From contig JAOQAE010000002.1 in the NCBI GenBank assembly GCA_025963725.1, positions 1,115,765 through 1,179,764 on the forward strand: a DNA stretch of 64,000 nucleotides, given 5' to 3'. The stretch comes from Bacteroidota bacterium (GTDB lineage Bacteria > Bacteroidota > Bacteroidia > 2-12-FULL-35-15). This document shows positions 7,081-20,633 of this stretch, piece after piece. The first letter of the stretch is position 1; every line of letters starts with the position of its first letter. The notes under the pieces are model-generated. The model was not told the origin of the DNA. It saw nothing but the letters and a program-made list of their open reading frames with translations, and did no database searches. A program made the translations under genes and the position numbers.

Positions 7081-7128
7081 TATCCCGTGCTACGCCTGTC
7101 CCGGACCTGATCCGGGGACAGGAATCTC
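7081..7128 (+). repeat. Degenerate family A-like hairpin element
   Basis: tatcccgtgctacgcctgtcccggacctgatccggggacaggaatctc. It keeps the nested CCCGGA..TCCGGGG hairpin but has lost the outer right arm. Confidence 0.5.
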
Positions 7129-9856: not shown

Positions 9857-11269
9857 ATGAAGCTCTTCAGAAAATTCCAATACCTGGTGATCGGCAGGCT
9901 GCTTTCGCACACCGATGATGTTTTTGAAAAAGCAAGGATCAACGTGCTTTTTAACTTTGTGCTCCTGTTCATCTTACTGAATATTCCCTACACACTTCAA
10001 ACGCTCAGCAACGGAAACCTCTTTCATTTTTTCCTCGCCAGCCTCACCACCACTGCCCTCTTAGCCAGCCTAATCATCCTGAGAAGATCGGACACTGTGA
10101 AATGGGCGGTTTACTTTTATGTGCTGAACCACACCATCCAGATCGTATCACACTTCCTGATCAACAACGGCCGCATGGAGATGCAGGGCACTTCCTTCCT
10201 GATCCTTTACGTCCTCTTTGGTTATGTAATGCTCGGCAGGGACTGGGGGCGCCTGCTTACCCTGTTTGCCGTGCTGATGATGTTCACGGGCATTTACAAC
10301 ATGAACACCGGCTTCAGCCTGTTCCGCTTTCCGGATTCCTATGCCGATACCAGCAGCCCTGAGCTCCGTTACCTCGTGGTGATCCCCGTACTGCTGAACA
10401 TTTACCTCATCAGTGAATTTGTAAAGGCGCGGTATAAGGCGGAAAAGCAGATCGATGAACAGAAGCTTAGGCTCGAGGCGAACAACAAGGAGCTGGAGTC
10501 GAAGAACGAGGATATTCTCTCGAGCATTAATTATGCGAAGCGCATTCAGCAGGCGATCCTTCCCACGGATGACACCATTCAGCGCGGCATCCCGCTCTCA
10601 TTTATCCTCTATAAGCCACGCGATATTGTAAGCGGCGATTTCTACTGGTTCAGCAACCTTGATGATGATTCTTATATTATTGTCGCTGCCGACTGCACAG
10701 GCCACGGTGTTCCGGGCGCTTTCATGACGGTGATCGGGAGCAACCTCCTGACACAGATCATTTCTGAGAACAATGTAACCGCGCCGTCAGTCATCATGTC
10801 GGAAATGGACAATCATATCACAGCCACGCTGAAGCAGGAGAAGCAGCATTACCAGATCATCCAGGACGGCATGGACCTTTCACTGCTGAAGGTGAATAAA
10901 AAACAAAATGAGTTTATCTATACAAGCGCAAAGCGTCCCGCGATCTTTATCCGCGACAAGCAGATCAAAGAGTTCAAAGGCAGCAAAAGTTCGCTGGGCG
11001 GACTGCGCATGGAGGAAAAGCAGTTTGATGAGATCAGCATGAAGTACGAGAAAGGCGATATGATCTACCTCTTTACCGATGGCTATATCGACCAGTTCGG
11101 CGGAAATGATAATAAAAAATTCATGATCAAACGGCTGCGTGAGCTGCTGCTGGAAATTCATTTGTTTCCAGTTGCAGAGCAAAAGCAAAAGCTCGATGCC
11201 GCCATCACTTCCTGGATCGGGAAGAATGAGCAGACCGATGATATTTTAATTATGGGGATCAGATTTTAG
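9857..11269 (+). CDS. Membrane-anchored PP2C/SpoIIE-family serine phosphatase
   Basis: Hydrophobic multi-TM N-terminal half, a coiled linker, then SINYAKRIQQAILP ... SGDFYWF ... AADCTGHGVPGAFM ... TDG..DQ, typical of SpoIIE/RsbU-type PPM domains. Confidence 0.85.
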   Translation: MKLFRKFQYLVIGRLLSHTDDVFEKARINVLFNFVLLFILLNIPYTLQTLSNGNLFHFFLASLTTTALLASLIILRRSDTVKWAVYFYVLNHTIQIVSHFLINNGRMEMQGTSFLILYVLFGYVMLGRDWGRLLTLFAVLMMFTGIYNMNTGFSLFRFPDSYADTSSPELRYLVVIPVLLNIYLISEFVKARYKAEKQIDEQKLRLEANNKELESKNEDILSSINYAKRIQQAILPTDDTIQRGIPLSFILYKPRDIVSGDFYWFSNLDDDSYIIVAADCTGHGVPGAFMTVIGSNLLTQIISENNVTAPSVIMSEMDNHITATLKQEKQHYQIIQDGMDLSLLKVNKKQNEFIYTSAKRPAIFIRDKQIKEFKGSKSSLGGLRMEEKQFDEISMKYEKGDMIYLFTDGYIDQFGGNDNKKFMIKRLRELLLEIHLFPVAEQKQKLDAAITSWIGKNEQTDDILIMGIRF

Positions 11270-11280
11270 GTACAGATCGC

Positions 11281-11436
11281 GAATCTATTACGGAGAGGCA
11301 TCACAAAACTTAACGTCATCCCGTGCCACGACACGGGATCTGTCAATTAACAATATGAATCTTACTACGGAGTGAACATCACAAAACTGAACGTCATCCC
11401 GTGCCACGACACGGGATCTGCTAATTAGAACAATAT
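11281..11436 (+). repeat. Two tandem units of about 78 bp from repeat family A (TACGGAG box plus CGTCATCCCGTGCCACGACACGGGATCTG hairpin)
   Basis: Units are at 11281-11356 and 11357-11436. Each ends in caatATGAATCTTA, so the start codon and first codons of the GIY-YIG gene are duplicated. Confidence 0.85.
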
Positions 11437-11740
11437 GAATCTTAACAAAGCTTACGTTTACATTCTGTCAAATAAAAACAGAACGGTACTTTACATTGGC
11501 GTGACCAACGACCTCGAACGAAGAATCAATGAGCATCGGCAGGGTACAGGTTCCGCCTTCACTAAAAGATACAATGTACATGAATTAGTCTATTATGAGA
11601 TTCACTCTAACATAGAACAGGCAATAGCGAGGGAGAAGCAACTGAAAGAATGGAAGAGAAACTGGAAATTGGAATTAATTAAAACCCTAAATGCTGAAAT
11701 GCTTGATTTAGCAACAGATTGGGTTTTACAAGATTCGTAA
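11435..11740 (+). CDS. GIY-YIG nuclease family protein (UPF0213-like, 101 aa)
   Basis: YVYILSNKNRTVLYIGVTNDLERRINEH carries the GIY..YIG..R..EH signature. KREKQLKEW is the conserved C-terminal motif. Confidence 0.85.
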   Translation: MNLNKAYVYILSNKNRTVLYIGVTNDLERRINEHRQGTGSAFTKRYNVHELVYYEIHSNIEQAIAREKQLKEWKRNWKLELIKTLNAEMLDLATDWVLQDS

Positions 11741-11746
11741 ACTATG

Positions 11747-11990
11747 AACAGATCCCGTGTCCCCGGATCAAGTCCGGGGCAGGCGTGGCACGGGATGACG
11801 AATACCTTATGAGTTTTCTCCGTACTTAAAAATCGCTTTAGTCTAATCAACAGATCCCGTGTCGGAGCACGGGATGACGAATACCTTATGAGTTTTCTCC
11901 GTATTTAAAAATCGCTCATTCTAATCAACAGATCCCGTGTCGGGGCACGGGATGACGGATGATTTATGAGTTTTCTCCGTATTTAACACA
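11747..11990 (-). repeat. Three tandem family A units, inverted relative to 11281-11436
   Basis: Units are at 11747-11848 (with the nested CCCCGGA hairpin), 11849-11926 and 11927-11990. The reverse complement reads TACGGAGAAAACTCATAAGGTATTCGTCATCCCGTGCTCCGACACGGGATCTGTT. Confidence 0.85.
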
Positions 11991-13196
11991 TCATAAATTC
12001 CTTCTCAGCTTCGCCATATAAAACCCATCATACCCTTCGCTCGGCATGATATTGCGCTCCTCCATAAATTCGAAGCCCTTATTTTTTTCGAGGAACAACT
12101 TCACCTGCTCATTGTTCTCTCCCGGAAGAATACTGCAGGTGGCATACACCATGATTCCGCCCGGCCTGAGCATCTGTGAATAATTGCTGATGATCTCCTG
12201 CTGTGTCCTTTTTACCTCCTCGATAAATTCAGCGCTGAGCTTCCATTTGGCATCCGGGTTCCTGCGGAGCACACCCAAACCCGAGCACGGAACATCCAGC
12301 AACAGCCTGTCGGCAGAGCCTTTCAGCTGAGATACAACCTGCGGATTGACTTTCTTTGTTTTAATGATCTTCGCTCCTGCCCTGTCGGCGCGCCTTTGCA
12401 GCTCAGTTAATTTCCGCTCCTCCACATCCATGGAAATGATATTGCCCTTGTTCTTCATCATCGCGGCAATGTGCAGCGACTTCCCTCCTGCCCCTGCGCA
12501 GGCATCGATCACCTGCATGCCCTGCAGCAGTTCCATGTATGGCGCGATCAGCTGCGAAGAGGCATCCTGCACTTCGAACAGGCCTTTCTCATATTCCTTC
12601 AGCGATTGAAGATGCTGCCGCTTTAACAGGATGAGCGCATCGGGATAAGCTGCATCCTTTTTCGTTTCAATGCCGCTCTTCCGTAACTGCAGCTGCAAAT
12701 CATCGGCTGTTGTTTTCAGTGTGTTCGCGCGAAGCACAACCTCTGCTTCCTTATTCAGCTCATGCAATTCCTTTCCCCAGCCCTCTCCCAGCTCCCTGCT
12801 TCCCATCTCATCCAGCCAGTCGGGAATAGATTCGCCGATCTTACGCACCGTTTTCAATTCGTTTATTCTTTCATTCACTGCAGCCGCATCAATGAATGAA
12901 AATTCTTCCCAATCGGGAAGCGCTTCACCTTTGATCAGCAGCCAGGTTCCGAAGAGATTAAAATAATCGGCACGATACGTTGCTTCCGTGGCTTCGTTGA
13001 CCAATCGCCACCAGCGTACCATTCCGTACACATTTTCAGCAATAAAGCGCCTGTCGCGGGAGCCGAAGCGGCTGTTTTGCTTCAGCGCCTGCTCCACAGC
13101 CTTATCGGCATACATGCCTCCTGAAAAAATAGCCTTCAGTGTTTCTGTTACGGCAAATACAAGTGTTCGGTGCAGCTTCATCGGTTTGCTTTCCAT
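11991..13196 (-). CDS. rsmB: 16S rRNA (cytosine-C5)-methyltransferase, RsmB/Sun (NOL1/NOP2) family
   Basis: NusB-like N-terminus, DACAGAGGKS SAM motif, and LLDVPCSGLGVLRRNPD plus YATCS catalytic Cys motifs. Confidence 0.85.
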   Translation of the reverse strand: MESKPMKLHRTLVFAVTETLKAIFSGGMYADKAVEQALKQNSRFGSRDRRFIAENVYGMVRWWRLVNEATEATYRADYFNLFGTWLLIKGEALPDWEEFSFIDAAAVNERINELKTVRKIGESIPDWLDEMGSRELGEGWGKELHELNKEAEVVLRANTLKTTADDLQLQLRKSGIETKKDAAYPDALILLKRQHLQSLKEYEKGLFEVQDASSQLIAPYMELLQGMQVIDACAGAGGKSLHIAAMMKNKGNIISMDVEERKLTELQRRADRAGAKIIKTKKVNPQVVSQLKGSADRLLLDVPCSGLGVLRRNPDAKWKLSAEFIEEVKRTQQEIISNYSQMLRPGGIMVYATCSILPGENNEQVKLFLEKNKGFEFMEERNIMPSEGYDGFYMAKLRRNL

Positions 13197-15899: not shown

Positions 15900-16520
15900 A
15901 TGAATTTCTCCTCCAAACTTATAGAAGACGCTGTTAACGAGTTCAGCAAGCTGCCGGGCGTTGGCAAACGCACAGCGCTCCGCTTTGTGCTGCACCTGAT
16001 GAAACAGAGCCCGGACGAGGTTAGCCAATTCAGCACCGCCTTTACACGGCTGCGCCAGGAGCTGCGCTACTGCGCAAAATGCCACAATGTATCCGACAAG
16101 CCTTTGTGCGATGTTTGCCTGAACCCGCACCGCGATCACAGCACCGTATGCGTGGTGGAGGACATCCGCGACGTAATGGCAATTGAAAACACACAGCAAT
16201 ACAGGGGCGTTTACCATGTGCTCAACGGGATCATCTCCCCGATGGATGGCATCGGCCCTTCCGACCTTACCATTGAATCGCTCGTGCAGAAGGTGGCCGC
16301 AGGTGAGATCAAGGAGATCATTATGGCACTGAGCACCACCATGGAAGGCGACACCACTAATTTCTACATCTACAAACGACTGAAAGAATACAGCCTTACC
16401 GTAAGCACCATCGCCCGCGGCATTGCGATCGGCGATGAGCTGGAATACGCCGACGAGGTTACCCTGGGACGCTCCATCATCAACCGAACCCCTTACGAAA
16501 ACTCGTTAATGATTAAATGA
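15900..16520 (+). CDS. recR: Recombination protein RecR
   Basis: [13 protein letters not shown] helix-hairpin-helix, the [16 protein letters not shown] zinc finger, and a Toprim region. Confidence 0.95.
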
Positions 16521-16999
16521 TGTGAGGATGTACCAATGTGCTGATTGTTGATAGTGGATTGATGAAGACAGTTTATTGATTAAGAACGTTTAATTCATTT
16601 TATGGAGCCCAGGAAAGAAAACCTGATTGTAGACCTGTCATTTAAATTTTCTTTGGAAGTAATAGAATACACGGAACTGCTTGAATCAAAAAAGCGGTTT
16701 AATATGGCAAATCAGCTGTTCCGGAGTGGAACAGGGATTGGCGCTAATGTCCGTGAAGCTCAAAATGCCGAAAGCAAAGCTGATTTTATACATAAATTAA
16801 AAATTGCAGCCAAAGAGGCAGAAGAAACTGAATATTGGTTACTCCTTTGTAAACTCAGTAAAAGTTATCCTGAGTGCGACTCTCTTTTGTCACAAGCTCA
16901 AAGCCTACTGAGAGTGTTAGGTAAAATAATCTCTTCATCACGCCGATAATGTTTATACCTCAATCAGAAATCAATCAATCGGTACATTTACACATCAGC
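16519..16999. other. IVS-like cassette: a four-helix-bundle gene bracketed by inverted repeats that exactly fill the recR-GT2 intergenic space
   Basis: Left arm GATGTGAGGATGTACC (16519-16534). The reverse complement of the right arm (16981-16996) is GATGTGTAAATGTACC, 13 of 16 identical. Both arms are followed by TGATTG-rich sequence. Confidence 0.5.
16602..16949 (+). CDS. Four-helix-bundle protein (23S rRNA intervening-sequence protein / Avd-like family)
   Basis: LFRSGTGIGANVREAQNAESKADFIHKLKIAAKEAEETEYWLLL is the hallmark of this family. The gene is more A+T-rich than its flanking genes. Confidence 0.85.
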   Translation: MEPRKENLIVDLSFKFSLEVIEYTELLESKKRFNMANQLFRSGTGIGANVREAQNAESKADFIHKLKIAAKEAEETEYWLLLCKLSKSYPECDSLLSQAQSLLRVLGKIISSSRR

Positions 17000-17001
17000 T
17001 A

Positions 17002-18978: not shown

Positions 18979-19086
18979 CCGTCATTCCGTGCCACGACAC
19001 GGAATCTCTACGCGATGTTAAGGCTGGCAGGATTCCCTTCACCTCATGATTATAGCGAGATCCCGTGTCGGAGCACGGGATGACAT
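18979..19086. repeat. Convergent pair of family A hairpins between converging genes
   Basis: ccgtcattccgtgccacgacacggaatct at 18979-19007 (+) and gagatcccgtgtcggagcacgggatgacat at 19057-19086 (-). They probably act as terminators for the GT2 gene and mqo. Confidence 0.75.
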
Positions 19087-19136
19087 TGTAATTGGAGTAA
19101 TATTAAACAAAGCCTTCGCACAGAATAAGACAAACA

Positions 19137-20633
19137 TCAATCATACTTCAGCTTCAATAGTGTTCCGCTTCTCTTCCGGATCTCGTGGCAAAGCGCAGGG
19201 TCGGCATCGAGCGACAAGCCGTACGAAGGGATCATCTCTTTTAGCTTCCGCTGCCATTCCGCGCTCATCGCTTTTTCCTTAAAGCATCGTTTGATCACCT
19301 CCAGCATTACCGCAACAGAAACAGAGGCGCCGGGGGATGCGCCCAGTAATGCCGCAATAGAACCATCGGCGGCGCTTACGATCTCCGTCCCGAATTCCAG
19401 CACGCCGCCTCCCTCTACATCTCTCTTAATTACCTGCACACGCTGCCCGGCAACAGCAAGGTCCCAATCCTCCAGCTTTGCATCGGGCACGTAATGCTTC
19501 AGCGCTTCCAGCCTGTCTTCGGGAGATTGCTTTACCTGGTCGATCAGGTATTTTGTGAGCGGGATATTATGAATGCCCGCGGAAAGCATCGGGCGGATGT
19601 TGTTCAGCTTTATCGATCTCGGGAGATCCATCAGCGAGCCATGCTTCAGGAAGCGCGTGGAAAAGCCTGCATAAGGGCCGAACAGCAGCGCCTTCTTTCC
19701 GCCGATCATACGTGCATCGAGGTGCGGCACCGACATAGGCGGGGCGCCCACTTCAGCAAGGCCATATACCTTTGCGGAATGCTGTGCCACCACTTCGGGA
19801 TTATTGCAGATCAGCCATTGTCCGCTCACCGGGAAGCCGCCGTAGCCCTTGCTCTCTTCAATGCCTGATTTTTCAAGCAGTGTAAGGGCCGCACCACCGG
19901 CTCCGATGAACACGAAAGGCGACTCGTACATTTTTTCAATGCCGCTTTCCGGGTTTTTAAAAGTAACCTTCCAGCTATTATTCTTTGCCTTATCGAGGTA
20001 CGTGACCTCGTAACCCATGTACATGCTCACGCCGGGAAGCGCAAGCAGATGATCGAACATCAGGCGGGTGATGGCACCGAAATTCACATCGGTGCCGAGG
20101 TCCATTTTTGTAGCAGCCACCTTTTCATTCGGGTTCCTGTTCCGCATGATCAGCGGGATCCATTCCTCCAGCTGTTTCCGGTCATCTGAAAAAAGCATGC
20201 TCCTGAACAACGGGTGGCTCTTCATGGCTTTATGTCGCCTGCGGAGATATTCCACATTGATCTCTCCCCACACAAAGCTCATGTGCGGAATATTGGTGAT
20301 GAATTTTTCGGGAGAGGCCACAGCGCCTTTTTCAACAAGGTAAGCCCAGAATTCTTTCGACACTTCAAACGATTCGGCGATCTTCACTGCCTTTGAGATT
20401 TCGATAGAGCCATCCGGCAGCAGCGGAGTGTAATTGAGCTCGCAGAAAGCGGAATGGCCTGTGCCCGCATTGTTCCAGGCATCGGTGCTTTCACCGGCGA
20501 CTTCATTTAAGCGTTCAATTATCTTTATAGTGAGGTTGGGCTGCAGCTCTTTCAGAATGATCCCGAGGGTTGCGCTCATGATGCCGGCGCCGATAAGGAT
20601 CACATCGGTGCCTGTATGTTCAGAATTCTCCAT
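19137..20633 (-). CDS. mqo: Malate:quinone oxidoreductase
   Basis: DVILIGAGIMSATLG FAD motif and ESTDAWNNAGTGHSAFCELNYTP, which is highly characteristic of Mqo. 498 aa. Confidence 0.9.
   Translation of the reverse strand: MENSEHTGTDVILIGAGIMSATLGIILKELQPNLTIKIIERLNEVAGESTDAWNNAGTGHSAFCELNYTPLLPDGSIEISKAVKIAESFEVSKEFWAYLVEKGAVASPEKFITNIPHMSFVWGEINVEYLRRRHKAMKSHPLFRSMLFSDDRKQLEEWIPLIMRNRNPNEKVAATKMDLGTDVNFGAITRLMFDHLLALPGVSMYMGYEVTYLDKAKNNSWKVTFKNPESGIEKMYESPFVFIGAGGAALTLLEKSGIEESKGYGGFPVSGQWLICNNPEVVAQHSAKVYGLAEVGAPPMSVPHLDARMIGGKKALLFGPYAGFSTRFLKHGSLMDLPRSIKLNNIRPMLSAGIHNIPLTKYLIDQVKQSPEDRLEALKHYVPDAKLEDWDLAVAGQRVQVIKRDVEGGGVLEFGTEIVSAADGSIAALLGASPGASVSVAVMLEVIKRCFKEKAMSAEWQRKLKEMIPSYGLSLDADPALCHEIRKRSGTLLKLKYD

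Follow-up and report, generated by a model that had tools for sequence, protein, structure and literature searches.

An ssn-like GIY-YIG nuclease gene framed by inverted hairpin repeats in an uncultured Bacteroidota genus

We analyzed a 64,000-nucleotide stretch of a Bacteroidota genome (GenBank assembly GCA_025963725.1, contig JAOQAE010000002.1, positions 1,115,765 to 1,179,764), hereafter the window, in which a small nuclease gene lies between arrays of a hairpin repeat. The genome (G000; other G numbers denote relatives, and L numbers denote loci) comes from an uncultured genus and is assembled into 7 contigs totaling 4.79 Mb, at 97.9% completeness. The gene sits between two convergent neighbors, a SpoIIE-type phosphatase gene on the plus strand (9857-11269, stop codon 11267-11269) and rsmB on the minus strand (11991-13196, stop codon 11991-11993), and the gap between them is filled by this one gene and its repeats. 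Judged by its sequence, the locus is very probably a module of the Ssn/SRM system (Chenal et al. 2025, Nat Commun 16:2388, PMC11893778), in which a nuclease of the Ssn family is linked to a hairpin, the "Ssn-related motif" (SRM), and the 101-amino-acid (aa) protein encoded here would be the family member.

A nuclease gene between inverted hairpin arrays

The Ssn family (CDD cd10448) consists of single-domain GIY-YIG proteins of ~94 aa (PMC11893778). Its members bind their hairpin repeat only as single-stranded DNA (ssDNA), recognize only one of its strands, and cut a few nucleotides upstream, leaving double-stranded DNA and RNA untouched. Of the homologs, only those of Neisseria and Wolbachia have been shown to have this ssDNA specificity and 5' cut site. 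SsnA of N. meningitidis and the NTS/dRS3 repeat, with NTS being CGTCATTCCCGCGMAVGCGGGAATCYRG, form the type pair. Across Ssn homologs, the degenerate SRM pattern, HGTCWYN(0-2)YYVSBRHN(0-5)WNVSBRGN(0-2)RNCYNB, was found near 71% of the genes and on both sides of 42%; the threshold for homology to SsnA was a tblastn E value below 1e-10 (PMC11893778).

The open reading frame (ORF) of the ssn-like gene spans 11435-11740 on the plus strand, between the SpoIIE and rsmB stop codons. Residues 5-78 of its product match the Pfam GIY-YIG domain (PF01541, E=4e-20), and the only other Pfam match, to T5orf172 at 28 bits, covers the same stretch. The protein is a single-domain GIY-YIG enzyme within the range of ~90-110 aa, with no extra DNA-binding domain beyond the core of ~100 aa, and its nearest solved structures are the ~100-aa UPF0213 proteins 1zg2 and 1ywl. 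NCBIfam has no specific model for it and gave only a weak match to group I intron endonucleases. Y9, Y20, and E67, in YVYIL...LYIGVT...AREKQ, are the putative catalytic residues. Their spacing, 11 from Y to Y and 47 from Y to E, equals that of Y6, Y17, and E64 in SsnA when the two proteins are compared by residue numbering (PMC11893778).

Each repeat unit beside the gene is built around the hairpin CGTCATCCCGTGCnnCGACACGGGATCTG. A TACGGAG box lies 19-20 nt beyond the core on the outer side, and the inner flank is a copy of the gene edge next to it. Upstream, two direct units follow one another on the plus strand with a 78-nt period. The first (11288..11365) has its box at 11289-11295 and the hairpin CGTCATCCCGTGCCACGACACGGGATCTG, a match to the published SRM motif, at 11314-11342, and contains a copy of the gene start, caatATGAATCTTA, whose ATG lies at 11355. 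The second (11366..11434) has its box at 11366-11372 and its SRM hairpin core at 11392-11420 and leads into the real start codon at 11435. The 16-mer AACAATATGAATCTTA, ATG included, occurs at 11349-11364 and again at 11429-11444, so the start codon is doubled.

Downstream, three units of the same family lie on the minus strand. The gene-proximal SRM (11749..11800) starts 9 nt past the stop codon and is a nested-hairpin variant, carrying a second hairpin, CCCCGGA...TCCGGGG, within its loop; its predicted DNA fold reaches -15.6 kcal/mol. The adjoining segment (11801..11907) comprises the outer flank of this unit and the second downstream unit, with CTCCGTA at 11818-11824 and at 11897-11903 and a canonical SRM hairpin core at 11851-11879. 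The third unit (11908..11986), with a canonical core at 11929-11957 and CTCCGTA at 11975-11981, ends 5 nt from the rsmB stop codon.

An earlier note, made from the letters of this DNA alone, had described two direct units of about 78 bp upstream and three inverted ones downstream, a TACGGAG box in the units, a recurrence of the gene's ATG at the unit junction at 11355, and a downstream array running right up to the rsmB stop. All of these features are present, the array stopping just short of that codon. Four of the five scattered copies that the note had listed elsewhere in the window, at 1608, 1858, 18980, and 19057, are likewise genuine; the fifth, at 7081, is a degenerate nested-hairpin variant.

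The hairpin family and its link to the nuclease gene

All four canonical hairpins flanking the gene, two upstream on the plus strand and two downstream on the minus strand, fit the SRM pattern. Genome-wide, this pattern had 47 matches as opposed to 7-14 in Markov-simulated genomes. The flanking hairpin also resembles the NTS of Neisseria.

The repeat has the structure CGTC-ATCCCGTG-CNNCGA-CACGGGAT-CTG, the base preceding GTCAT being mostly C or T, and is predicted to fold as DNA into an 8-bp stem with a 6-nt loop (-7.9 kcal/mol). A 29-nt pattern for the hairpin found 8 matches in the window and 0 in 100 shuffles, and the core GTCATnCCGTGCnnCGACACGGnATC is present in ~96-101 copies across the genome, mostly in intergenic positions. 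Because the variable stem position is Watson-Crick paired in 98 of 101 copies by way of four different pairs (C-G in 65, G-C in 22, T-A in 9, and A-T in 2), hairpin formation is under selection. An Rfam search for structured RNA yielded only subthreshold microRNA noise.

Sixty-two of the 101 copies form 31 adjacent pairs, and 39 are solo. Twenty-nine of the pairs are convergent, with the CGTC tags facing outward, and none has the tags facing inward. These doublets have a sharp outer edge at (C/T)GTCAT and two types of spacer, with the hairpin starts ~55 nt or ~78 nt apart. Same-strand pairs less than 200 nt apart occur only twice in the genome, and both are the arrays beside the nuclease gene. 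In the window, the solo copies at 1608-1636 (a nested-hairpin variant) and 1858-1886 share the plus strand but sit 250 nt apart, each followed by an inner flank of the TCATAAATG type. The hairpins at 18980 and 19057 make up a gene-less, tag-outward doublet with the long type of spacer (18980..19085), which has a counterpart at the same position in G033, the nearest relative.

Within 45 nt outside the CGTC tag, CGGAG was the sole enriched 5-mer that is not AT-rich. It accompanies 21 of the 101 copies, a 5-fold enrichment over the background of 3.9%, with a peak 20-29 nt from the tag, and it also precedes the left hairpin in the cassettes (the hairpin-gene-hairpin units) of G009, G011, G019, G028, and G022. 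The box could be a cleavage or target signal or, alternatively, part of a promoter.

Orthologs were sought among 60 relatives, and hairpins were counted across 68 genomes of the genus. Orthologs at 68-89% identity occur at eight loci (L007-L014), each in a different genome of the genus. Seven of these genes have the same hairpin on both sides, on the gene strand upstream and on the opposite strand downstream, 15-50 nt from the ends of the ORF; the eighth (L012, G014) lies within a cluster of hairpins of the same, CCCGTG, type. Orthologs at 56-65% identity show the same geometry with a different hairpin, GTCAT(G/C)CTGAAyTTrTTTCAG(C/G)ATC, and still more distant homologs are flanked by GTCAT hairpins of the GTCATTGCGAGG or GTCATTTCGAA type.

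Each repeat family is scattered through the genomes that carry its gene. The CCCGTG hairpin was found in only 19 of the 68 genomes, including all eight that have an ortholog at ≥68% identity. The CTGAA-type hairpin is abundant where its own gene clade occurs: G017 contains 98 copies of it and 0 of the CCCGTG type. Both gene types are present in G014, each with its own hairpin, together with both repeat families. At one syntenic locus, G019 and G028 carry a CCCGTG-type pair and G017 a CTGAA-type pair, which suggests that gene and hairpin co-diverged in place. The proposal of the earlier note that the nuclease is tied to the dispersed repeat family is thereby supported, both by the eight close orthologs and by a hairpin type that changes with the protein.

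Homologs are also found far outside the genus. In a scan of one genome per species (loci L098-L177), homologs at 50-60% identity (tblastn E values of ~1e-29 to 1e-31) were recovered from Sphingomonadales, Chloroflexota, Omnitrophota, and other phyla. Several of them carry repeats that match the NTS consensus exactly, for example, TGTCATTCCCGCGAAAGCGGGAATCCAG, and a few have these on both sides (such as L123, L145, and L166). Taking the range to 50-63% identity, the hosts include Alphaproteobacteria (Parvibaculum, Sphingomonadales, Devosiaceae, and Rickettsiales), Patescibacteria, Chloroflexota, Clostridia, Omnitrophota, and Cloacimonadota. Such identity is unusually high across phyla this distant and suggests horizontal spread of the gene-repeat unit.

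Four other GIY-YIG paralogs in G000, at 33-44% identity, lack the hairpin of the ssn locus. The earlier note had held that paralogs without flanking repeats would count against the link. Taken literally, this is what was found, yet the link stands, because genes of such low identity represent other lineages with flanking repeats of their own. The closest, at 44% identity (L002, G000:C7:560094-560333), is located in a different array, whose 132-nt and 56-nt units contain the hairpin TTTTTCTGAAAAAGAAAAA as well as the palindrome TCCCGATAGCTATCGGGA; the palindrome also occurs beside the tRNA-linked paralog L003. That paralog (C6:925357-925596), L004 (C7:690037-690258), and L005 (C7:6765-6974), at 33-37% identity, lie directly 3' of tRNA-Leu(caa), tRNA-Arg(tct), and tRNA-Met(cat), respectively, each bracketed by direct repeats of 43-56 nt composed of the 3' part of the tRNA and the terminator. 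The repeat at L005 includes the gene's ATGGA, and the downstream repeat at L004 begins with AGGTC and the T-arm hairpin, a shape like that of a GTC-tagged SRM. A tRNA gene was found beside none of the 29 loci of SRM-type homologs checked in relatives (L007-L035).

We also considered a RAYT, the HUH/Y1 transposase associated with repetitive extragenic palindromic (REP) sequences, as the partner of the hairpins. The gene that they flank is a GIY-YIG gene, and the only gene with the Pfam domain Y1_Tnp in G000 lies elsewhere (L006, G000:C6:384022-384366). It has a REP family of its own, ACAGGCCGCTCCTACGGAGCTTGA, in arrays just downstream, and no copy of GTCATCCCGTG nearby. The hairpins are therefore not RAYT partners, because the single RAYT of this genome is served by an unrelated REP family. 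The REP palindrome ACAGGCCGCTCCTACGGAGCTTGA contains TACGGAG, the same 7-mer as the box of the ssn units.

Relocation, inversion, and decay within the genus

The cassette occupies at least five genomic contexts within the genus. It lies between the SpoIIE-type gene and rsmB in G000 and G033 and beside rsmB without SpoIIE in G065. A third context is common to G009 and G011 and a fourth to G019 and G028, and further contexts are found in G022, G004, and G014. Some genomes, such as G033, G014, and G022, contain several copies. In G004 and G022, copies are interrupted by in-frame stop codons.

Comparison of the rsmB locus among relatives revealed an empty site: fewer than 10 nt separate the stop codon of SpoIIE from that of rsmB in G005 and G070. 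The corresponding gap in G000 measures 720 nt and is made up entirely of the cassette and its extra units. The cassette has also been inverted: positions 11393-11761 of the window align in reverse within otherwise collinear blocks of G033, the closest relative, and the outer parts of the units, TACGGAGAGG...AAC, have kept their place next to SpoIIE in G033 as in G000. Since the inner segment is reversed and the outer parts have not moved, the breakpoints of the inversion lie in or at the inverted hairpins. The suggestion of the earlier note that this is a mobile or formerly mobile cassette gains support from the multiple contexts, the empty junction in two relatives, and the inversion in G033.

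Between the orthologs of G000 and G033, nonsynonymous divergence (pN) is 0.067 and synonymous sites are saturated. Apart from the free loop dinucleotide, the hairpin cores next to the gene contain not one deviating letter in either genome. Both observations count as evidence of selection.

The gene-less doublets resemble the cassettes closely. Short doublets read GGGATC-TGTTAATTAAA...CATTTATGA-GATCCC, and the cassettes of G009, G011, G019, and G028 read GGGATC-TGYCAATTA...ORF...ACAATGA-GATCCC; both inner flanks, GGGATCTGTYAATTAAA... and ...ATGAGATCCC, are shared between the two. Most simply, the doublets look like cassettes whose ORF has been lost.

Across the 20 kb of the window syntenic with G033, no clean polymorphism of the hairpin family was found. 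Two other differences from G033 were seen. An extra insertion of ~115 nt in G033 (L067, G033:C3:50213-50330), opposite positions 19130-19139 of the window, begins with a tagged hairpin, in reverse GTCATCCCGAGCTTGCCCGAGGGATC, that belongs to a third SRM-like family absent at this site in G000. Conversely, a segment of ~480 nt at 16520-17001 of the window is missing from the syntenic site in G033. It holds one small ORF (MEPRKENLIVDLSF...), whose product may be a four-helix-bundle protein of the "23S rRNA intervening-sequence protein" type, and is inserted exactly at a TAAATGA stop/start overlap, with TAATGA again at its right edge.

Proposed mechanism, alternatives, and known systems

Judging from its characterized homologs, the protein would bind its cognate SRM hairpin only as ssDNA and in one orientation and would place its cut on the 5' side, a few nucleotides from the CGTC/TGTC tag. 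With the tags facing outward, the outer 5' edge of either strand of a cassette or doublet would hold a site that the enzyme can cleave. The enzyme may introduce nicks at the edges of its own element when replication, transcription, or DNA uptake, for instance, exposes them as single strands. Nicks beside inverted repeats of 26-29 bp could drive inversion by recombination between SRMs, the local 78-bp duplications that are seen only beside the gene, and occasional copying of the unit, or of its ORF-less form, to new sites. The tandem 78-bp units are local duplications of hairpin, gene edge, and outer flank and may have arisen from repeated breakage and repair close to the gene or from unequal exchange there. 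Overall, SRM-ssn-SRM behaves as a selfish or domesticated element that turns over slowly and is passed on mostly by vertical descent, much as a RAYT gene does together with the REP/REPIN repeats that belong to it. Within the genus, the unit has changed sites, has been flipped by recombination between its inverted SRMs, has decayed in some genomes, and has diverged in hairpin specificity along with its protein.

Several observations weigh against this interpretation. The strict published SRM pattern is passed by only 40 of the ~100 family copies. Gene and repeat do not correspond one to one: G000 itself has 5 orphan hairpins of the CTGAA type, and G027 (80% complete) has 10 CCCGTG hairpins without a close gene. 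The bias of solo copies toward the lagging-strand template is only a trend, with 25 on the G-rich strand as opposed to 14, which is not significant. Finally, eight doublet loci of G000 were compared with G033 in search of empty sites, and seven had syntenic flanks. Six of these seven doublets are in the same place in G033, at ~84% nucleotide identity, so that turnover of the doublets must be very slow. The remaining locus has unrelated sequence in its place in G033, and one G033-specific insertion of another kind lies nearby; these seven loci gave no clean pair of insertion and empty site and no target duplication. That this nuclease spreads or maintains the doublets we regard as possible, at somewhat less than an even chance.

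A bolder reading would make SRM-ssn-SRM an active autonomous transposon of a new class, an insertion sequence (IS)-like element of ~390 bp whose sole product is a ~100-aa GIY-YIG ssDNA nuclease. It would move through ssDNA intermediates in a peel-and-paste-like manner, with the doublets as its miniature inverted-repeat transposable elements (MITEs) and CGGAG as its cleavage or target signal. Chenal et al. noted the IS-like architecture (PMC11893778), and in the present genus the terminal inverted hairpins with their sharp outer edge at (C/T)GTCAT, the inner flanks common to doublets and cassettes, the five or more contexts with an empty site in G005 and G070, and the multiple copies in G033, G014, and G022 would all suit a transposon. 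The CGGAG box, at 20-29 nt 5' of the tag, is also reminiscent of IS200/IS605 ends, whose cleavage sites are offset. However, G000 has a single copy of the gene, and six of the seven doublets have held their positions between species whose synonymous sites are saturated. Neither a target-site duplication nor a clean recent insertion was seen at the seven doublet loci compared with G033, and the different hairpin types of G017 and of G019 and G028 at one syntenic locus point to vertical co-divergence rather than hopping. Moreover, to our knowledge, hydrolytic GIY-YIG nucleases have no strand-joining activity. With no known joining activity, slow turnover, and no target duplication, we consider an autonomous transposon improbable.

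Two further explanations fare worse. A free-standing homing endonuclease would cut hairpin-bearing empty sites into which its gene is then copied by recombinational repair, the repeats being its targets. GIY-YIG is a classic homing-endonuclease fold, to which the weak NCBIfam match to group I intron endonucleases can be added, and the gene does occupy hairpin-bounded slots. Other GIY-YIG paralogs in G000 are found within tRNA gene arrays, as are the seg genes of phage T4. Yet the protein has no DNA-binding domain beyond its 100-aa core, and a single gene faces 29 doublets, whereas doublets serving as targets predict numerous gene copies. Characterized members of the family, furthermore, do not cut double-stranded DNA (PMC11893778), and homing is very unlikely. 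As a fallback, the earlier note had allowed for repeat proliferation around a hotspot, that is, an ordinary repeat family piled up by coincidence in a permissive intergenic region that happens to hold a GIY-YIG gene. The mostly intergenic repeats and the four paralogs without the hairpin would agree with this, but the unit of hairpin, gene, and hairpin is present at different loci in eight other genomes, the hairpin type tracks the protein clade, and the only same-strand hairpin neighbors less than 200 nt apart lie beside the gene. The association has, in addition, been published across phyla (PMC11893778). Coincidence is hardly credible.

An Ssn/SRM module remains the preferred reading. The genus is useful as a clean comparative series, with several contexts, an empty site, an inversion, pseudogenized copies, two co-resident gene/repeat pairs, and ORF-less doublets. 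Through such a series, the origin of CGTC-tagged REP repeats becomes more directly testable. The Ssn family was described only in 2025. The new pair of nuclease and hairpin specificity (stem ATCCCGTG) also matters because such pairs are the raw material of proposed ssDNA-cutting tools. Our literature search found no paper joining GIY-YIG with "repetitive extragenic palindromic" or with bacterial MITEs and no follow-up paper on SsnA.

In REP/REPIN systems, the RAYT gene, usually present once, has its own hairpin repeat on both sides in inverted orientation. REP/REPIN doublets can fold into long hairpins, and inheritance is slow and largely vertical, with co-divergence of gene and repeat. The single-copy gene with its own inverted hairpins, the doublets, and the slow vertical co-divergence described here are all alike. 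The enzyme, by contrast, is a hydrolytic GIY-YIG nuclease and not an HUH/Y1 transposase, and the tag is CGTC and not GTAG (for REP/RAYT systems, see Nunvar 2010; Bertels and Rainey 2011; Ton-Hoang 2012).

The repeat itself has the hallmarks of the CGTC-tagged REP superfamily (Di Nocera, De Gregorio, and Rocco 2013, PMC3733652). It has the terminal CGTC/TGTC tag, an 8-bp stem, within the 8-9 bp of the superfamily, starting with complementary A and T, and a short 3' tail, and it is mostly intergenic and mostly arranged in dimers of opposite orientation (29 tag-outward, 0 tag-inward, and 39 solo). The loop is 6 nt long here as opposed to 4-5 nt in the four families described, and Bacteroidota are not among the hosts named in the section consulted. 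CGTC-tagged REPs were said there to "apparently lack a dedicated transposase" (PMC3733652). Since a dedicated nuclease partner is evident at the present locus, the Ssn link fills this gap.

The closest counterpart is Ssn/SRM itself, and the locus does not represent a new kind of system: its link between gene and repeat was published under that name in 2025 (PMC11893778). Both feature a GIY-YIG protein of one domain, ~95-100 aa long and with its catalytic residues spaced alike, a gene flanked on both sides by a CGTCAT-tagged hairpin that fits the SRM pattern, about a hundred dispersed copies, co-variation of protein and repeat between lineages, and IS-like architecture. They differ in host, Bacteroidota not being named in the main text of that paper, and in the hairpin, which has the stem ATCCCGTG with a 6-nt loop here and the stem ATTCCCGCG with a 3-nt loop in NTS. 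The 78-bp tandem arrays that include the gene's own start and stop edges are particular to the present locus, for which a role in natural transformation is neither known nor suggested. Chenal et al. raised NTS-ssnA-NTS as a present or past mobile element without testing it (PMC11893778); here, comparison among relatives provides evidence of relocation, an empty site, and inversion. The traces of movement, inversion, and ORF loss reach further than the 2025 paper; they fall short of demonstrating a mechanism. The locus is a new member of the system, with a new hairpin specificity in an uncultured Bacteroidota genus.

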